Below the pieces are notes generated by a model. That model was not told the origin of the DNA. It did no database searches and saw only the letters and a program-made list of their open reading frames with translations. From the sequence record NC_054922.1: DNA of 64,000 nt; one strand, 5' to 3'. Position numbers and translations under genes: made by a program. Shown here in pieces: positions 7,525 to 64,000 of the stretch. Source of the DNA: Escherichia phage vB_EcoM_KAW1E185. How positions within the stretch are numbered: position 1 is the stretch's first letter; the number at the start of each line of letters is the position of its first letter.

Positions 7525-7555
7525 ATAGTATCACTACCCTATCTAAAAGTAAACT
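7525..7555 (-). promoter_or_regulatory. early-type promoter with -10 TACTAT set inside a perfect 10-bp inverted repeat (agatagggta / taccctatct)
   Basis: Minus strand reads GTTTACT-N17-TACTAT; inverted-repeat arms at 7515..7524 and 7535..7544. Confidence 0.5.
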
Positions 7556-7788
7556 TATTTTTTACGAAAAATTGATTTATATTTATCAGCCCATTTCTCG
7601 ATGACTTTTTCTGGTCCATAGATAACAAAATAATCACCAAACTCTTCACCACCGAGTTGACCGAAATTATCTAATGCATCACGAAGAACTCCATGAGGCA
7701 TTTCGCCCATTTTATCTTTCTTACCAATGTAAATAAACTCAACTTTTACATCAGCAGCTTCAGCAATAAATTCTTGATACGTTTTCAT
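7555..7788 (-). CDS. small internal-protein-like protein with capsid-targeting leader MKTYQEFIAE, 77 aa
   Basis: ORF-track ORF trimmed to ATG 7788 (GGAGA Shine-Dalgarno); leader is the canonical T-even internal-protein leader ending in the gp21 cleavage motif I-A-E. Confidence 0.55.
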   Translation of the reverse strand: MKTYQEFIAEAADVKVEFIYIGKKDKMGEMPHGVLRDALDNFGQLGGEEFGDYFVIYGPEKVIEKWADKYKSIFRKK

Positions 7789-7824
7789 TTTATTCTCCAA
7801 TTTCACATTTGTTTTGATAGGGCA

Positions 7825-7854
7825 ATAGTATCACTACTAAAACCCCGTGTAAAC
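7825..7854 (-). promoter_or_regulatory. early-type promoter (GTTTACA-N17-TACTAT) for the 77-aa leader-bearing gene
   Basis: Shares the repeated core aatagtatcactac and the motif gtaaacaactttgtgaaatt with the ipI promoter. Confidence 0.5.
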
Positions 7855-57613: not shown

Positions 57614-57802
57614 TTAATAATCTATTGGTAAGAGAGTACGATATATTTCAAACTTTGGACCTTTTTCATAGGCATCAAATGTTTCTGTGAATTTATTATA
57701 AGCATATGCATCTATAAATTCAATCATAATTTGTGATACAGAAGTAGAAACATCTCCACCTTCTTTTTGAGCAACGACAATTGTTTCTAAGTAAGCTTTC
57801 AT
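57614..57802 (-). CDS. hypothetical small protein, 62 aa
   Basis: ORF track; start overlaps the ligase stop. Confidence 0.55.
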   Translation of the reverse strand: MKAYLETIVVAQKEGGDVSTSVSQIMIEFIDAYAYNKFTETFDAYEKGPKFEIYRTLLPIDY

Positions 57803-59262
57803 AGACCAGTTACCTCATGAAAATCACCAAATACATCCTCGAATGTATTAGCTTTAGTTTTATCTTCACGTAAACGAATCGCAATCGGAAGAAATAATTT
57901 AACGTAATCAGTGCGGCCATCAGATTTTAGCCAACCGTTGCATTCGCACTCTAGAATTTTTCCAATATAATAATTTTGGTTTTCCATAATGCGAGTACGG
58001 TCAAGTTCATGTGATTTTACACCGGCTTTATCTTTTAAGCCTGAACCAGCATTTACTTTAATTTTTCCACACTCTGATTCAAGAATAAATCCACCTGCTT
58101 TAGTAGGGTCTTTACGGTGAGGATAAATTCCTACAATTTTTAAATCAACATCAATTACTTCTTTAAATTTATAGAGATTTTTTGAACGAGCATTTTCCCA
58201 CAATCCATCGGTATTTTTGAGAATAATACCTTCAAGACCTTGGTCAATATACTTTTTATAAATTACCTTAGCTTCATCTAGGTTATTTACTACCTGGTTT
58301 TCAATTAAAATTACTTTATCATATCCTGATGTCATTTGTTCTAGTTTAGAAAAACGTACATCATATTTTAAACGAAACGCCGGAAGACCGTATATTTCTA
58401 CCAACGGAACATAATCCCAGACCTGAAACTTCATGCATTGAGCTTCTTTTTCTGAAATAGTTCCCTTTAAAGATTTATTAGCGATTCCATTAGAAGCAGT
58501 ACGAGATTCCGCTACTTCGGCGAATTCTTTAGCTTTACTAATTTCAGGATAATCATCAAAAAGAAAATCTAGGCCTTCTGGTTCCTTTTTAACTTGCTCA
58601 TGGTATACCAATTCGCCATCAATTAACACACCTTCTGGATGAATCTGGCGGGCTTCAGCAGTCATTTTGATTAATTCTTCCTTAAGAAGATCTAATCCTA
58701 GATATTCATTACCAGCTCGTGATAAAAGACGAACATCATCTAATTCATCGCCTCGGACTTCAGCAAAACACCTGGCTCCATCTGCTTTTAACTGTGCAAA
58801 GGCTGGAAATTTGATATTCTTACTAATGCCCTTTTCATCATAAGAACTTGCCAGCATTTGAGGTTGTTCAGGAATTAAACCTGGCCAAACTTTGTTTGCA
58901 ATAGATACTGAAGCACCGCATTCAAGGTCTCGCATCATCACTCGACGCAAAACTTCAACATCATCCTTTTTACCATCGGTGATATATCCAGTCAATTCCT
59001 CAATTGCAGCATTTCCGGTCAATTTCCGAGTAGCTAACGTGAATTCAATGAAGTCAAGCATATCGGTAATGGTCAGCATTCCAAAACTCTGGGTAGCAAT
59101 ACCAGGTTTAGGCCATTTCTTGATATAATACTGTAACCCACGAGAATAAGTTAGACGATATACTCGTTTAAGCAATTCATTATCTTTATTCTTTTCAAGA
59201 ATTGCTTGCTTCTGCTTAGTTGATCCAATAGATGCTATTTCATTCAGAATTTTAAGAATCAT
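57799..59262 (-). CDS. 30: gp30 ATP-dependent DNA ligase
   Basis: 487 aa; adenylylation motif KADGAR; N-terminus recognised as T4 DNA ligase. Confidence 0.97.
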   Translation of the reverse strand: MILKILNEIASIGSTKQKQAILEKNKDNELLKRVYRLTYSRGLQYYIKKWPKPGIATQSFGMLTITDMLDFIEFTLATRKLTGNAAIEELTGYITDGKKDDVEVLRRVMMRDLECGASVSIANKVWPGLIPEQPQMLASSYDEKGISKNIKFPAFAQLKADGARCFAEVRGDELDDVRLLSRAGNEYLGLDLLKEELIKMTAEARQIHPEGVLIDGELVYHEQVKKEPEGLDFLFDDYPEISKAKEFAEVAESRTASNGIANKSLKGTISEKEAQCMKFQVWDYVPLVEIYGLPAFRLKYDVRFSKLEQMTSGYDKVILIENQVVNNLDEAKVIYKKYIDQGLEGIILKNTDGLWENARSKNLYKFKEVIDVDLKIVGIYPHRKDPTKAGGFILESECGKIKVNAGSGLKDKAGVKSHELDRTRIMENQNYYIGKILECECNGWLKSDGRTDYVKLFLPIAIRLREDKTKANTFEDVFGDFHEVTGL

Positions 59263-59528
59263 TGTTCATCCTTCAGAGTTTGATTTACAGCTCTATTATA
59301 AATCAATTCATCATTAAGCTCAGTCAAAGACCTATGATATGTAGTTCTAACTTTATTTCCTTGCATCCAGTGCTTGACGTAAATGAAACCTTGCTCTACA
59401 CATTTTTTAAAAATTCGTTCGTCTTTTTGAGCTCGGAATTCTGGATTGCATCTAAAAAATTGATTTACGTGACCGTAATCACGTGTAGTATTACCTTCAT
59501 TTTCATAAATAGTGTGAACGACAAACAT
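59259..59528 (-). CDS. hypothetical protein, 89 aa (position of T4 30.1)
   Basis: ORF track. Confidence 0.6.
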   Translation of the reverse strand: MFVVHTIYENEGNTTRDYGHVNQFFRCNPEFRAQKDERIFKKCVEQGFIYVKHWMQGNKVRTTYHRSLTELNDELIYNRAVNQTLKDEQ

Positions 59529-60367
59529 TAGAATGCTCCTTGGAAAATATTATCACCACTAGTAGGTCTATTATACAAATACTCTATGCCACCAGGTTTA
59601 ATATAGTTCCATGTCTGAAACGGATGTGTCTGATATGGATGATATAGATGATTATAAGGATTAAATCCAGGAGTTCTCCAGGTAGTATTCCAACGAAAAG
59701 AATCGTTTTTAATCATCTTTTCAATTGCATCTTTTATAGCTTTTTCACTATCAAAACTTTCTTTATTTTCCTTCGGTGAAAAAAGCTTATTTTCTACATC
59801 ATTCCATGTATAAACTCGCTGTGCAGTTTTTGGAATACTGTCACGCTCTCCTCGAGCCATCCAATAAACAGGAACATTTAATATTTCACTCGCGTGATCG
59901 CAGTGGTGAGCGAGATCGTCAATATAACAAATTACGTTATATTTTTCTTTTGCCTTTTTGAACAGCTCTTCTTTTGAAGAATCATGACCACACATCATTA
60001 CTTCTGAGAAGGCACCAGGAAAAAGAGCATTCAAATTAAATTGACGATTCAGCAGAGCGTCAATAGAATCACCCAATGCTGTAACAGCTACAAAATTATA
60101 ATCTTCTTTTAATTTGTTAATTACACACAGAGCATCTTTATATGGAGACAAGTAACGAATAAAATCTGAACGATTGTATTTTTCAATTAACTTGACACCA
60201 AGTTCTTCATCACAATTAAAGAGTTTACCTGGAGAAATAAATTTCTCATCCTGGATCATTTTTAAAATATGTTCTAACGGAAGATTATATTTCTGAGCAA
60301 AATAAGGAAGGCCTGATTGCCAGCTTAAACATACTCCATCAATATCAGTTAAAATAGTAGGCTTCAT
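59528..60367 (-). CDS. HAD-superfamily hydrolase-like protein, 279 aa (position of T4 30.2)
   Basis: N-terminal motif ILTDIDGV (HAD motif I, DxDG) and later YIDD. Confidence 0.65.
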   Translation of the reverse strand: MKPTILTDIDGVCLSWQSGLPYFAQKYNLPLEHILKMIQDEKFISPGKLFNCDEELGVKLIEKYNRSDFIRYLSPYKDALCVINKLKEDYNFVAVTALGDSIDALLNRQFNLNALFPGAFSEVMMCGHDSSKEELFKKAKEKYNVICYIDDLAHHCDHASEILNVPVYWMARGERDSIPKTAQRVYTWNDVENKLFSPKENKESFDSEKAIKDAIEKMIKNDSFRWNTTWRTPGFNPYNHLYHPYQTHPFQTWNYIKPGGIEYLYNRPTSGDNIFQGAF

Positions 60368-60828
60368 AGAGAGTCTCTTAATAGGTTTAACACATCAATA
60401 AATTCAGCTTCGGTTAGTATTGTATCATCTTTTGTTAGACCACTAGCCATGCTGTGCTTCAAAACTTTTCCTTTCGAGGCTTGTAATGCATCGCGAAAGC
60501 CCTTGTTTTGGATCGCTGCTTCAAAATATGCATTTGTGTATAATTCTTTCCACGCTGGAGAGTATCTTGAAAACGGAACTCCAAGCCAGAAGAGGGTCCC
60601 ACGGTCCTGAGCTCTAGCATAAGCTCGTCCAGCTTGTTGGGCGGCAAGCCCGGATAACCCAAATATACGTCTTTGATGTTCAACATTTTTCACCTTACAC
60701 CCTTGGAGGAATCCTTCGAGACCTCCAAATTGGATACCATCCATAACAAAAGGCCATTGGGCGAAATTACTTAATGCGCATGATGGCCATCTAAAATTGC
60801 TTCTTATCTCTAGCTCAGACATTTTCAA
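60364..60828 (-). CDS. NADAR (YbiA-like) domain protein, 154 aa (position of T4 30.3)
   Basis: LSNFAQWPFVMDG...LEGFLQGCKV aligns by eye with E. coli YbiA DFSNFAAWPIKVDG...SEHYFQAQKF; the C-terminal half is also collinear. Confidence 0.65.
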   Translation of the reverse strand: MKMSELEIRSNFRWPSCALSNFAQWPFVMDGIQFGGLEGFLQGCKVKNVEHQRRIFGLSGLAAQQAGRAYARAQDRGTLFWLGVPFSRYSPAWKELYTNAYFEAAIQNKGFRDALQASKGKVLKHSMASGLTKDDTILTEAEFIDVLNLLRDSL

Positions 60829-61021
60829 TACTTATAATTTCAACATCAGCCCAATGACCATAGCAAGGAAGACGAAATTCAACTGGCCAGTTAGGGTCCT
60901 TTTCTAATATAATAGACTCAACTTGTGGTTCTTCGTGTTCATCAGTATATGGATTTTTATCTGTTACTTTATATGTGACCTTAATGTACTGAATTCCAAA
61001 AATCTTATTAATTATATTCAT
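60815..61021 (-). CDS. hypothetical protein, 68 aa
   Basis: ORF track; overlapping operon. Confidence 0.5.
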   Translation of the reverse strand: MNIINKIFGIQYIKVTYKVTDKNPYTDEHEEPQVESIILEKDPNWPVEFRLPCYGHWADVEIISIENV

Positions 61022-61215
61022 ACTAATTCCTTTAATCCGTAAATAGGAGATAATTCATCGCCCATACGAAGGTCTTCATTTCCATCTACCCAGGAAACAA
61101 TATAAGCCTCTTTTATTTGAATACCACTCCATTTAAATGGAGGTAGAACCTTAGAAATTAATCCAGGTATACCAACTCCCTTTAATTCAACAGTTTGACC
61201 TAAAAAGAATTTCAT
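61018..61215 (-). CDS. hypothetical protein, 65 aa
   Basis: ORF track; overlapping operon. Confidence 0.5.
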   Translation of the reverse strand: MKFFLGQTVELKGVGIPGLISKVLPPFKWSGIQIKEAYIVSWVDGNEDLRMGDELSPIYGLKELV

Positions 61216-61526
61216 TAGAACCTCATCTGAAAGCCATGCGATTTAACATTACCGCCGCCAATATCAGAAATATTAATTTCACGCGCAATTGAAGGGTCAA
61301 TGTCAATTTCACGATTGAGTTTAGTGATAGCTAAAGTATCGCGCCCATTTACAGTACGGAACTTTAAAGGACATACTACATTAACGTAGTTTTTAATCGA
61401 TTCACTAGTAGGTTGCAAATGAGCAGGAAGGTCTTTAGGCGCCTTAGAGAAAACTACTTCGCAGAAGTTTTTACGAGTATCAAAATAAGTAGTCATAAAC
61501 ATAGTATTTTCCTCAGTAAGGGCCAA
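61215..61526 (-). CDS. hypothetical protein, 103 aa
   Basis: ORF track; overlapping operon. Confidence 0.55.
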   Translation of the reverse strand: MALTEENTMFMTTYFDTRKNFCEVVFSKAPKDLPAHLQPTSESIKNYVNVVCPLKFRTVNGRDTLAITKLNREIDIDPSIAREINISDIGGGNVKSHGFQMRF

Positions 61527-61542
61527 AGCCCCTCATTTTATT

Positions 61543-61908
61543 TTAAATATCAAATTCGTTAAGAACTACATCAAAGATTGCTTCAAGATGCTCAGGTTTA
61601 GCTCTGTTACTCAGAATATGACGAATCCAAGTTTTAACAAGAAGCTTACGATTAACGCCATTCCAGCAAGGATGAGTCCCTAAATCGCGTTGACGAAAAT
61701 CATCATCCAAAGCGATTTTGAAGTTGGAACCTTCCATTGTAATTGAAACCGTGATGCCATTTTCAAATCGCATATAAACGTAGTTAGGAGTCATATACTG
61801 TTCAATTTCGCATACTGATCCATTTTGATGTTTCCAAAGGCAAATAGTATCAATAGAACCTGCAATACCATTAGAAACATATTTACGTTCAAAGTTGATG
61901 TAGTTCAT
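61543..61908 (-). CDS. hypothetical protein, 121 aa
   Basis: ORF track; preceded by a promoter set in an inverted repeat. Confidence 0.55.
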   Translation of the reverse strand: MNYINFERKYVSNGIAGSIDTICLWKHQNGSVCEIEQYMTPNYVYMRFENGITVSITMEGSNFKIALDDDFRQRDLGTHPCWNGVNRKLLVKTWIRHILSNRAKPEHLEAIFDVVLNEFDI

Positions 61909-61932
61909 TTTTATTCTCCGAGATGTTTAATT

Positions 61933-61964
61933 GCGGTACAGGTATATAATATCATATCCTGTAC
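61933..61964 (-). promoter_or_regulatory. early-type promoter with -10 region inside 8-bp inverted repeat ggtacagg / cctgtacc
   Basis: Minus strand GTTTACT-N17-ATTATA; inverted-repeat arms at 61925..61932 and 61948..61955. Confidence 0.45.
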
Positions 61965-61984
61965 CAAAGTAAACAATTATTTTA

Positions 61985-62308
61985 CTACTTTCCAGTGCTG
62001 CATGTCAAGTTTACCAACTTTTTCATCTTCTCAATTAAGCGTTCGGCACGTTGGCGAGCTGTAACATAATACCATTCACCTAATTCATTTTGTTCAATTT
62101 TTCCAACGATTACTGTATTCAATTCATAAATCCAACCAGTAAAGAAATTATGAACTTGAATTGTAAAGGTGAAATCTGTTCCCATACCTTCTGTTGTTTC
62201 TACTTCAATAATATCACCTTCAACTGCCATTAAGAACCACATAGTTTCATCATATTTACCATTGAAGCATTTAGTTTTAACTGCAGCGTTCAGATTAATC
62301 GTTTTCAT
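61985..62308 (-). CDS. hypothetical protein, 107 aa
   Basis: ORF track. Confidence 0.55.
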   Translation of the reverse strand: MKTINLNAAVKTKCFNGKYDETMWFLMAVEGDIIEVETTEGMGTDFTFTIQVHNFFTGWIYELNTVIVGKIEQNELGEWYYVTARQRAERLIEKMKKLVNLTCSTGK

Positions 62309-62335
62309 TTTATTCTCCTTTGTTTGTGTAAGATA

Positions 62336-62365
62336 ATACTATCACAAAGGAACTATACTGTAAAC
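62336..62365 (-). promoter_or_regulatory. early-type promoter (GTTTACA-N17-TAGTAT) with flanking inverted repeat tttgtg / cacaaa
   Basis: Shares the motif gtaaacaactttgtg with the promoters at 7825..7854 and 8192..8221. Confidence 0.5.
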
Positions 62366-62395
62366 AACTTTGTGCAATCTTTGGAAAATAAAAAA

Positions 62396-62413
62396 GGACT
62401 CCCGAAGGAGTCC
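62396..62413 (-). terminator. intrinsic terminator (minus strand) after the small basic protein gene
   Basis: Hairpin GGACTCC-CGAA-GGAGTCC followed on the minus strand by TTTTTT. Confidence 0.6.
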
Positions 62414-62418
62414 TCAAC

Positions 62419-62595
62419 TTATGCTTTCTGCTTACCAAAACGAGAAGCATCATCTCGAAGAACCGCGCGTGCTCGGCGCATGATCTTCTCAACAGTTTGA
62501 TTGATACGAGAGTTCGACCCACGCTTGTAGCCAGCGCGTTTAGAATCACCAACTTTCTTTTCAACTGCTTTCTTTGCTTTAGCTTGTTTTGCCAT
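62419..62595 (-). CDS. small highly basic protein, 58 aa (the longer ORF to 62727 is an alternative)
   Basis: Internal ATG at 62595 has an AAGAGA Shine-Dalgarno; product MAKQAKAKKAVEKK... is K/R-rich. Confidence 0.5.
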   Translation of the reverse strand: MAKQAKAKKAVEKKVGDSKRAGYKRGSNSRINQTVEKIMRRARAVLRDDASRFGKQKA

Positions 62596-62832
62596 TATAA
62601 ATTCTCTTTTAAATGAAAATGCAGGACTTATTGGCATTGCCGCGAAAGCCCTCAAGGGGTACTTAGGTTTTGAATATTTACCGACAGGATAACCATAAAC
62701 CTCGTCAACATTCAAGAGGTACACCATAAAACTGCCGGGGTCTTAAAACTATAATGATTCGCAAATCATTAATCAGACAGTTCGATGGCTCCTCGATTTT
62801 AGCTCACACTAAGGCAGTGAATCTCCAATAAA

Positions 62833-63081
62833 TTACTTCAGTGTTACCACAAAGTGACGAACTGCTTTTCGTGCAGCAGAAGCCAGAGGCTTAGCATACT
62901 TAAGTTCATCTTTTTCCTGAAGCTCAGCAGCTAATGCAGTTTGAGCAGGATTCAGATGTTTGAAATAACGCAGGATTTCAAGAGCTTCGGCTTCAACATC
63001 AATAGATGCGCCATAGTTTTCGTGACCATTATTCCATGCGTTTCGTTGCAGTTCAAGAGCGTGTTGTAATTGTTTAATCAT
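62833..63081 (-). CDS. rIII: rIII lysis-inhibition accessory protein
   Basis: 82 aa; recognised as T4 RIII. Confidence 0.93.
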   Translation of the reverse strand: MIKQLQHALELQRNAWNNGHENYGASIDVEAEALEILRYFKHLNPAQTALAAELQEKDELKYAKPLASAARKAVRHFVVTLK

Positions 63082-63228
63082 TTAAAAATTCTCGTTAGAG
63101 ATTAAAACTCGGTAGTCACGTTCTTCTGAATTTCATCTTCTTTCGACAGATCTCTCAGTTGTAGACTACCACATAGAATTGTTCGGTTAACTTATTATTC
63201 CGACACCCAATTCATATTATTATTTATA

Positions 63229-63564
63229 TCACTTATAAAGACACGGAATAGCTTTATAGTGACAGGTAACGAATTTTTGTTTAATTTCTTTTGGCTGCTT
63301 AAGACCCAGAGCTACAAAAGGATGCGGAACGTTTCGAATTTGACCAACTGGAAGAGAAGTCAAATCACCAACTTCGCAGAAACCTTCAGGAACATCAGGA
63401 CCAACAGAGTGAATTACACACAGTTCAGGAACTTCACCTTGAACACGTTTACCGATAATGAGTCCTGATTCTGTGACTTCTTCATCACCGGCTTGTGCAG
63501 GTTCAGAAACTAAAATAACATATTCACCGACAGCACGAATTGGTAGCTGTTGTACTTCAGACAT
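63229..63564 (-). CDS. 31: gp31 co-chaperonin (GroES analogue)
   Basis: 111 aa; recognised as T4 gp31. Confidence 0.95.
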
Positions 63565-63620
63565 CGTTTTTCCTTTTTGTTAACAGATGAATTAATAATA
63601 ACAAATAATTCTTAAAGCAT

Positions 63621-63929
63621 TTATTTACCAATAAATTGAAGCAAATGCTCAACTTTCATACCATTAACGGAAATCAATTTGTCAATAGAAAAACCTCGCC
63701 ACTCGCCAAGCTCAACATCAAATACTGGAATCATATCAGTAGATTCTTTCCGAGCAGATTCAGTCAATTTACCAGTTTGCATGGTTGGCATAAAGTCAGC
63801 ATCGCGAGTACCTTTCATAGTACGAATAGTACCATCAGACTTTTCAAAAACTACGTTTGAAATACCCATGGACAATTTAGTTTTCAAAATTTCACGAATT
63901 GCTACTTTCTGTTCAGTTGTCAGTTTCAT
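63621..63929 (-). CDS. hypothetical protein, 102 aa (position of T4 31.1)
   Basis: ORF track. Confidence 0.6.
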   Translation of the reverse strand: MKLTTEQKVAIREILKTKLSMGISNVVFEKSDGTIRTMKGTRDADFMPTMQTGKLTESARKESTDMIPVFDVELGEWRGFSIDKLISVNGMKVEHLLQFIGK

Positions 63930-64000
63930 TTATTTACCTATTACAGTTTTAATATGAGTTGTTCCACGTTCTTTAAGGGTGGAAAGTAATTTTTGGCATT

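Follow-up and report, generated by a model that had tools for sequence, protein, structure and literature searches.

Early promoter cassettes with embedded inverted repeats before genes 30.8 and 30.7 of a T4-like phage

Genes and promoter cassettes of the ligase-rIII interval

The window analyzed here is the whole stretch of 64,000 nucleotides from Escherichia phage vB_EcoM_KAW1E185 (NC_054922.1), a T4-like Tequatrovirus that shares ~97-98% identity with KRT47, Aplg8, and similar records and is distinct from T4 itself. Every gene of the ligase-rIII region is carried by the minus strand, in the transcription order 31, rIII, 30.9, 30.8, 30.7, 30.6 to 30.1, and ligase gene 30. The interval contains two cassettes only, each combining promoter motifs with an inverted repeat: cassette B (element B, promoter P30.8) before 30.8 and cassette A (element A, promoter P30.7) before 30.7. 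The features on which the analysis draws are as follows.

62833-63081, minus strand: rIII
62419-62595, minus strand: 30.9
62384..62415, minus strand: intrinsic terminator after 30.9, stem-loop GAGGACTCC-TTCG-GGAGTCCTT followed by a T-run (terminator scan)
62359..62374, minus strand: upstream and -35 region of cassette B, CACAAAGTTGTTTACA at 62374..62359
62336..62344, minus strand: extended -10 of cassette B (TGn plus -10), TGATAGTAT
62315..62352, minus strand: inverted repeat of cassette B, arms TTCCTTTGT (62352..62344) and ACAAAGGAG (62323..62315)
61985..62308, minus strand: gene 30.8, 107 aa, Pfam PF06019, the variable slot between the two cassettes
61968..61974, minus strand: -35 region of cassette A, GTTTACT
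61946..61954, minus strand: extended -10 of cassette A, TGATATTAT
61924..61975, minus strand: hairpin of cassette A, with nested arms that enclose the whole promoter and the -10 hexamer in the apical part
61906..61919, minus strand: ribosome-binding site of 30.7, GGAGAATAAAAATG, a direct repeat of that of cassette B (62318..62306)
61543..61908, minus strand: gene 30.7, 121 aa, Pfam PF06919
61520..61533, minus strand: GC-rich hairpin between 30.7 and 30.6, AGGGGCTTTGGCCC in the window and GGGGCTTCGGCCCC in relatives
57799-59262, minus strand: ligase gene 30

The terminator scan places the 30.9 terminator directly upstream of cassette B, and the same structure appears as T4 terminator 30.9(a) in a published list (PMC5931544). 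The GC-rich hairpin between 30.7 and 30.6 is without a promoter and forms the downstream end of the G8/LZ9-type deletion described below. Rfam covariance models run against 59000-64000 gave two sub-threshold, chance-like matches only, and a tRNA search (ARAGORN) was negative both for the region and for those relatives with a 155-nt insertion.

Both sites present the same succession of GTTTAC, 17-18 nt, and TGnTAnnAT, after which come GGAGAATAAA(A)ATG and the ORF of 30.8 or 30.7. In cassette B, the -35 hexamer TTTACA occupies 62364..62359, the 16-mer CACAAAGTTGTTTACA recurs within the window in the cassettes of ipI and ORF77, and transcription would start at ~62329. The repeat is perfect over 8-9 bp and spans the Shine-Dalgarno sequence: its 3' arm includes the GGAG of 30.8 (62318..62315, with the ATG at 62308), and its 5' arm lies upstream of the probable transcription start. 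The 9-bp stem would pair GGAG in long transcripts (fold z -1.1). Taken alone, this repeat is within chance (z = -1.1, with 31/200 shuffles matching it; p ~0.15 in the spacer/leader test described below), and it is invariant among Tequatroviruses.

In cassette A, transcription would start at ~61939. The inner arms of its hairpin are GGTACAGG (61965..61958) and CCTGTACC (61942..61935), and the outer arms are TGTTTACTT (61975..61967) and AATTAAACA (61932..61924). The resulting structure of ~21 bp (MFE -20.1 kcal/mol, z = -6.2, matched by 0/200 shuffles) ends 4 nt before the 30.7 Shine-Dalgarno sequence at 61919..61916, which stays unpaired ahead of the ATG at 61908. An extent of 61925..61964, as the preliminary description had given for this element, is too short, in that it leaves out the -35 hexamer (61974..61968).

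The two cassettes belong to a larger family. The pattern GTTTAC-N17/18-TANNAT has 8 matches in the window against 0.46 expected, a count reached by 0/100 shuffles. All but one of these matches lie on the minus strand, each with a Shine-Dalgarno sequence, an ATG, and an ORF after it, and they align as a single cassette family with the consensus aAAnnATTTCACAAAGTTGTTTACA...GTGATACTAT...GGAGAATAAAATGAAA. Its five further members stand before ipI, an extra 77-aa ORF, trna.4, an e.8-like ORF, and alt.-1. The preliminary description had proposed that one type of promoter and inverted-repeat cassette occurs both before 30.7 and before 30.8, and the consensus shared by the seven copies in the window bears this out.

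Comparison with T4 provides an identity for both elements. Over the stretches compared, T4 and the window agree fully in the -35, the spacer, the -10, and the repeat arms. A phiSITE-derived list places the T4 early promoters Pe128.2 at 129880..129928 and Pe128.6 at 130271..130320 (PMC5931544 supplement), and in T4 gene coordinates 30.7 starts at 129852 and 30.8 occupies 129921-130253. Because the promoter positions fit these gene coordinates, Pe128.2 corresponds to element A and Pe128.6 to element B. Both elements are labeled "predicted early promoter" in the fPS-90 record. Elements A and B are accordingly orthologues of the catalogued T4 early promoters Pe128.2 and Pe128.6, with predicted activity. 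The late promoter motif TATAAATA is absent from both intergenic regions, where the motifs are of the sigma-70 early type; a late or MotA-dependent middle promoter was considered for these two regions and rejected, as they contain neither TATAAATA nor a TGCTT box. The text of the T4 review and omics papers that were searched does not mention 30.7 or 30.8, and for the locus-specific GenBank entries FN868250 and FN868251 no accompanying paper was found in the literature.

Hairpins across cassettes and lineages

Complementarity between promoter spacer and leader was scored against a null in which the two segments were shuffled separately. The set of 27 non-redundant cassettes combined those of the window with others from related loci; 13 of them reached p <= 0.05, where ~1.4 would be expected, and 9 reached p <= 0.01; for cassette A, p = 0.003-0.005. 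The repeat arms mostly abut the extended -10. In 6/7 window cassettes, the read-through form folds around the -10 with -15 to -22 kcal/mol, the e.8 cassette giving a different fold of -13.1 kcal/mol, and transcripts beginning at the cassette's own start yield folds of 0 to -2 kcal/mol only.

For the P30.7 hairpin, conservation of pairing could be followed across lineages, with 12 ligase loci (IMG/VR) and 18 gp30.7 loci (metagenome scan) sampled, enough for covariation though not for a breakpoint census. An alignment of ten distinct sequences from Tequatro-, Mosig-, and Gaprivervirus and one metagenomic lineage has 96.4% of its cells paired, compared with 30-46% when the partners are slid. It contains 3 pairs with compensatory double changes and 20/140 G-U cells, on the basis of few independent changes. 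At the same promoter position, four other lineages carry repeats of 9-14 bp that are unrelated in sequence to the P30.7 hairpin.

L030: arms TTGGTGTAGGAGTA / TACTCTTACACCAA
L037: arms GCTGATTGAGTGT / ACACTCAATCAGC
Jiaodavirus: arms TTGGGTGGT / ACCACCCAA
L010, L011, and L013: arms CTCCGTTGTAT / ATACAACGGAG, with the Shine-Dalgarno sequence covered

When the cassettes with significant repeats were folded in both orientations, the sense fold was better than the antisense fold in 10, worse in 2, and equal in 1 (Wilcoxon p = 0.003), a comparison to be read with the caveat that strand composition differs. The sense-strand excess agrees with the occurrence of G-U pairs, and hence with a structure acting in RNA. 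Taken together, these patterns point to the hairpin as a selected structure that acts in the sense RNA, in preference to a site bound by a common protein or a cruciform in DNA. Its role as a classical terminator is doubtful, because a U-tract follows neither hairpin. Hiding of the Shine-Dalgarno sequence is predicted for P30.8, for alt.-1, and for the 30.7 cassettes of L010 and L011; as a raw count, at least 3 of the 4 Shine-Dalgarno bases pair upstream of the start in 9/27 cassettes.

Gene content and breakpoints among relatives

Within the phage collection, rIII is present at >=95% identity in ~519 records, 30.7 at >=90% in ~507, and the T4-type 30.8 body at >=95% in ~441, and an alternative 30.8 body is found in 35 records at >=95% and in 127 at 80-90%. 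Viewed from the ~519 records with rIII, ~441 carry the T4-type 30.8, ~35 the alternative allele, and the remainder neither. The alternative allele, likewise of Pfam family PF06019, shares 39% protein identity with the T4-type. Both 30.7 and 30.8 are missing from some viable relatives. In other genera, P30.8 and P30.7 are in place, with 1-2 extra ORFs between 30.8 and P30.7.

The allele swap can be read most clearly in SH-2, the junctions of which were placed by multi-way alignment. SH-2 is window-type up to GGAGAATAAAATGAAA of cassette B, Gaprivervirus/Mosigvirus-type through the 30.8 ORF, and window-type again after GTTTACTTTGGTACAGG of cassette A, so that both crossovers lie inside the cassettes, in shared stretches of 17 nt or less. 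The same junctions are found in teqskov, A2, and IME537, and since they are identical, the four carriers go back to one ancestral event; independent recombination events in these phages were considered and rejected for that reason.

Deletions affect the same slot. In Geo, 30.8 and cassette A are lost precisely, and cassette B is joined to the 30.7 ATG through recombination between two GGAGAATAAAATGAA repeats; this deletion was found once in the collection, and its junction is the ribosome-binding-site repeat. The Geo deletion is also the sole possible trace of mini-circle excision from tandem cassettes, of which it is the expected product. The G8/LZ9-type deletion (~9 records) takes out 30.8 and 30.7, its ends lying at the Shine-Dalgarno sequence of cassette B and at the GC hairpin before 30.6, and in CJY920/LH2 (two records) the sequence from codon 5 of 30.8 through the 3' end of 30.4 is gone. 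Both begin at the 3' end of cassette B. An explanation of the G8/LZ9 junction as the simple product of a 10-nt AATAAAATGA repeat was rejected, and inspection of the CJY920 junction revealed no convincing microhomology. Every surviving deletion retains P30.8 downstream of the 30.9 terminator.

Other breakpoints coincide with gene boundaries that are without a promoter, namely those of a 30.4/30.5 replacement in SH-2 (60862 and 61209) and the point where the G8 deletion ends downstream (61531). Under a gene-boundary null, with ~4 independent rearrangements, the finding of 4/8 breakpoints at ~2/9 boundaries amounts to a weak enrichment at cassettes. Selection for retaining a promoter ahead of the downstream genes, the ligase gene included, could account for the clustering of breakpoints behind P30.8.

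These comparisons bear on the suggestion, made in the preliminary description, that the genes between ligase and rIII are modular cassettes and not a fixed operon. Uniform gene content with no breakpoint at the elements, which would speak against such modularity, is not what the relatives present: 30.8 varies, and breakpoints fall inside the cassettes. The suggestion is supported for the 30.8 slot, with its swap and deletions, and not for 30.6 to 30, where start-to-stop overlaps are found and no such promoter occurs; judged from this arrangement, the block is operon-like.

Interpretation and relation to known systems

We consider it likely that the two elements are the composite cassettes Pe128.6 and Pe128.2, that their repeats form hairpins in read-through RNA, and that recombination takes place at patches of homology in the manner of the PeSL or "linker" model. 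Each cassette is made up of an A/T-rich upstream region, the GTTTAC -35, the TGnTAnnAT extended -10, a leader rich in C and A, and GGAGAATAAA(A)ATG as a strong ribosome-binding site. Host sigma-70 RNA polymerase would start ~7 nt past the -10, immediately after infection. The spacer of each promoter is complementary to its own leader, and because the transcript from the cassette's own start is without the 5' arm, a hairpin should form only in read-through RNA, as a stable structure at P30.7 and as a weaker 9-bp stem over the Shine-Dalgarno sequence at P30.8. Read-through RNA would then likely be attenuated or translationally silenced, and the unit of promoter and ORF would thereby become largely autonomous. 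The two ends of the cassette, the -35 with arm 1 and the ribosome-binding site with the first codons, are conserved across diverged T-even genomes and repeated within a genome, and T4 homologous recombination uses them as short homology patches, which implies no dedicated recombinase. One replacement and one precise deletion of 30.8 exemplify this use. Ordinary homologous recombination at the conserved ends of cassettes, together with selection, fits the data, and a dedicated mobility mechanism is not required to account for them.

A broader proposal, which we put forward tentatively and hold to be possible more than probable, is that the repeat bracketing the -10 is a selected sense-RNA hairpin common to T4-type early promoters and acts as a filter on transcript origin. 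RNA entering from upstream would be folded, and either attenuated or hidden at its leader and Shine-Dalgarno sequence, and RNA from the cassette's own promoter would stay open. If this were true, promoter-ORF units would be insulated from their genomic context and hence freely exchangeable, and the logic of the late genes e, soc, and 49 would extend to the whole class of early promoters.

A simpler account would see only ordinary promoters here, with the P30.8 repeat arising by chance and the breakpoints reflecting selection on ORF and promoter together with the only homology available. The non-significant repeat of cassette B is in keeping with it, as are the breakpoints at promoterless boundaries, the retention of P30.8 behind the 30.9 terminator in all surviving deletions, and the descent of the alternative-allele carriers from one event. 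It accords poorly with the P30.7 hairpin, which is clearly under selection, and with the strong enrichment of spacer/leader complementarity across the class; the allele-swap crossovers and the junction in Geo, moreover, lie inside the short cassette repeats and not merely close to them. As a full explanation, we regard this account as somewhat unlikely. Less probable still is that the cassettes are actively mobile, the 30.8 unit moving discretely by dedicated site-specific recombination or by excision and integration of mini-circles. The Geo deletion is the exact remnant expected from excision between tandem cassettes, mini-circles have been experimentally shown for the PeSLs of RB49/phi1 (PMC2839356), and four independent rearrangements start within ~30 nt at the end of cassette B. 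The replacement allele is nevertheless a diverged homologue at the same position and of the same Pfam family, as ordinary homologous recombination would yield; the repeat sequences differ from cassette to cassette, and there is therefore no common recognition site; further breakpoints lie at cassette-free boundaries; and no recombinase gene is found nearby.

The least probable explanation, and in our estimation a very unlikely one, is that the repeats act in DNA, as a cruciform that exposes the -10, as an operator for an early shut-off factor, or as the substrate of a structure-specific nuclease. It would give meaning to arms that abut the extended -10 in many cassettes, and the way in which T4 early promoters are shut off awaits explanation (PMC2988021). 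The arms of different cassettes, however, are unrelated in sequence, which makes a shared binding protein unlikely, the sense-strand G-U pairs (20/140 cells) would be A-C mismatches in a cruciform, and folding is better on the sense than on the antisense strand. Homology-patch recombination between composite early promoter cassettes with read-through hairpins is the reading that we prefer.

In this reading, the modular-cassette idea is the published PeSL model, and the finding is correct and already known. A reading of the sequence alone has recovered a real, previously described family, that of T4 early promoters with embedded stem-loops. What the interval adds is a clean worked PeSL example in the best-studied phage group, with the swap crossovers and the junction of a precise deletion within the cassettes, and a testable hypothesis for the spacer-leader complementarity of early promoters. 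The 30.8 slot is a natural site that comes equipped with a promoter and tolerates replacement, and as such it could help the engineering of T4-like phages, although its practical value is modest.

PeSL cassettes of T4-like phages were described by Arbiol et al. 2010 (PMC2839356) and Comeau et al. 2014 (PMC4122927). In that work, the stem-loop may lie between the -35 and -10 or overlap them, and the model also takes in the T4/PST pair, for which the promoter consensus is TTTACW-N17-TAYWAT (PMC2839356, PMC4122927). The elements of the window resemble PeSLs in the composite of early promoter, stem-loop, and Shine-Dalgarno/ATG before small non-essential ORFs, in the A/T-rich upstream region, in the placement of the Shine-Dalgarno sequence and start codon at the 3' end, and in adjoining indels or replacements between close relatives, here with few independent events. 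They differ in that their stems are AT-rich and without following U-tracts, the separate 30.9 terminator alone fitting the pattern of an intrinsic terminator. Terminator activity and the formation of mini-circles are conjectural for the T4-type cassettes. With respect to the PST/T4 layout, cassette B together with the 30.9 terminator matches it, as a stem of the AGNA...TCNT type just upstream of TTTACW-N17-TAYWAT; the stem-loop lies upstream of the promoter in that layout, whereas that of P30.7 straddles the -10 and has no upstream terminator.

The elements can also be placed beside three further systems. Promoter and stem-loop elements at the T-even IP locus were described by Repoila et al. 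1994; they are built on early promoters of T4, and their stems are AT-rich and vary in size (PMC2839356). The ipI, ORF77, and trna.4 cassettes of the window share a sequence family with elements A and B, which represent in the ligase-rIII interval the same type that was described at IP loci. In the T4 genes e, soc, 49, and I-TevI, an internal promoter is enclosed in a hairpin by which the ribosome-binding site is sequestered (PMC3014915). There, as in the present cassettes, the 5' arm precedes the internal start, so that only read-through RNA hides the Shine-Dalgarno sequence; the internal promoter of those genes is a late one and the effect on translation is known from experiment, whereas the promoter here is early and the effect predicted, and the P30.7 hairpin leaves the Shine-Dalgarno sequence uncovered. 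The "linker" sequences of Botstein and Campbell and the morons are alike in having short conserved recombination points at their borders and expression signals of their own in each unit, but the 30.8 units lie in the same orientation within a longer early transcription unit and are mostly allelic variants, not foreign. The closest counterparts remain Pe128.2 and Pe128.6 of T4 itself, which have the same placement relative to 30.7 and 30.8 and the same elements, with no material difference, as befits a window from a close relative of T4.

Possible exchange between neighbouring promoter cassettes

In several other genera (loci L021, L017/L020, L030 and L037 of our set of ligase-rIII regions), the half of P30.8, the early promoter in front of gene 30.8, that runs from -10 to +20 is nearly identical to the corresponding half of P30.7, the promoter in front of gene 30.7, in the same genome; in Jiaodavirus, for instance, the two have TATAGACCTGTACCACCCAAAC in common. 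The spacer of P30.8 is, by contrast, unlike that of P30.7 in these loci, and P30.8 lacks the repeat there. This combination suggests exchange of sequence from one neighbouring cassette to the other, with a crossover near -10.

Gene replacement, spacer length and earlier records

In phage SH-2, genes 30.5 and 30.4 (window 60863-61208) have both given way to one 30.4-related gene of 71 aa (L016 3996-4211). One breakpoint coincides with the stop codon of 30.6 and the other falls within the overlap of 30.4 and 30.3; a promoter cassette is not involved. In Mosigvirus NRG-P0074, a 204-aa ORF (L020 3900-4514) takes the place of 30.6 and is followed, ahead of 30.5, by an additional early-promoter-like motif.

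The rIII-30.9 spacer carries a 155-nt insertion/deletion polymorphism, at about 62709 in the window. The extra segment is seen directly in L019 (5421-5576), and fPS-90 (L001), L022 and L025 likewise have a spacer of about 400 nt, against the 237-245 nt that separate the two genes in T4 and the window. ARAGORN detected no tRNA in L019 or L001, although one stretch resembles a T-arm.

Two short GenBank entries, FN868250 (phage LZ1) and FN868251 (phage LZ9), span exactly the rIII-30.4 locus, and the LZ9 entry contains the deletion of 30.7 and 30.8; the locus has therefore been examined before. A literature search found no paper behind either entry. A further record, MG065689 ('Campylobacter phage A110a'), aligns with 114 nt of this region at 96.6%, apparently through contamination or wrong labelling.

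Structured elements of the region

These structured elements lie on the minus strand:

61520-61533, minus strand, GC-rich hairpin of the C(UUCG)G type at the 30.7/30.6 junction
62394-62415, minus strand, GC-rich hairpin of the C(UUCG)G type within the 30.9 terminator
63111-63170, minus strand, conserved structured intergenic element between gene 31 and rIII

In relatives the 30.7/30.6 hairpin reads GGGGCTTCGGCCCC; the window's copy is one base pair shorter and its loop is UUUG. The gene 31/rIII element is laid out as GGTAGTC-TACAAC-CTGAGAG-ATCTGTC(GAAA)GAAGAT-...-TCAG-AAGAACGT-GACTACC, with a U-rich tail on its 3' side. Among six distinct homologues, compensatory changes occur in 7 of the 18 predicted pairs, and the unpaired TACAAC and AAGAACGT are invariant. 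In Jiaodavirus-like phages and L010, the same core sits between rIII and 30.9 instead. The element has no Rfam match; a cis-regulatory RNA and a terminator of elaborate form are both possible readings.

An extra cassette and ORF at the internal-protein locus

An additional unit lies between ipI and trna.4:

7555-7854, minus strand, early-promoter cassette (start 7854) with a 77-aa ORF (7555-7788)

A Pfam search with the 77-aa ORF returned no match. At the same position T4 has just a 76-nt gap, and the unit resembles a textbook insertion of a cassette plus ORF.
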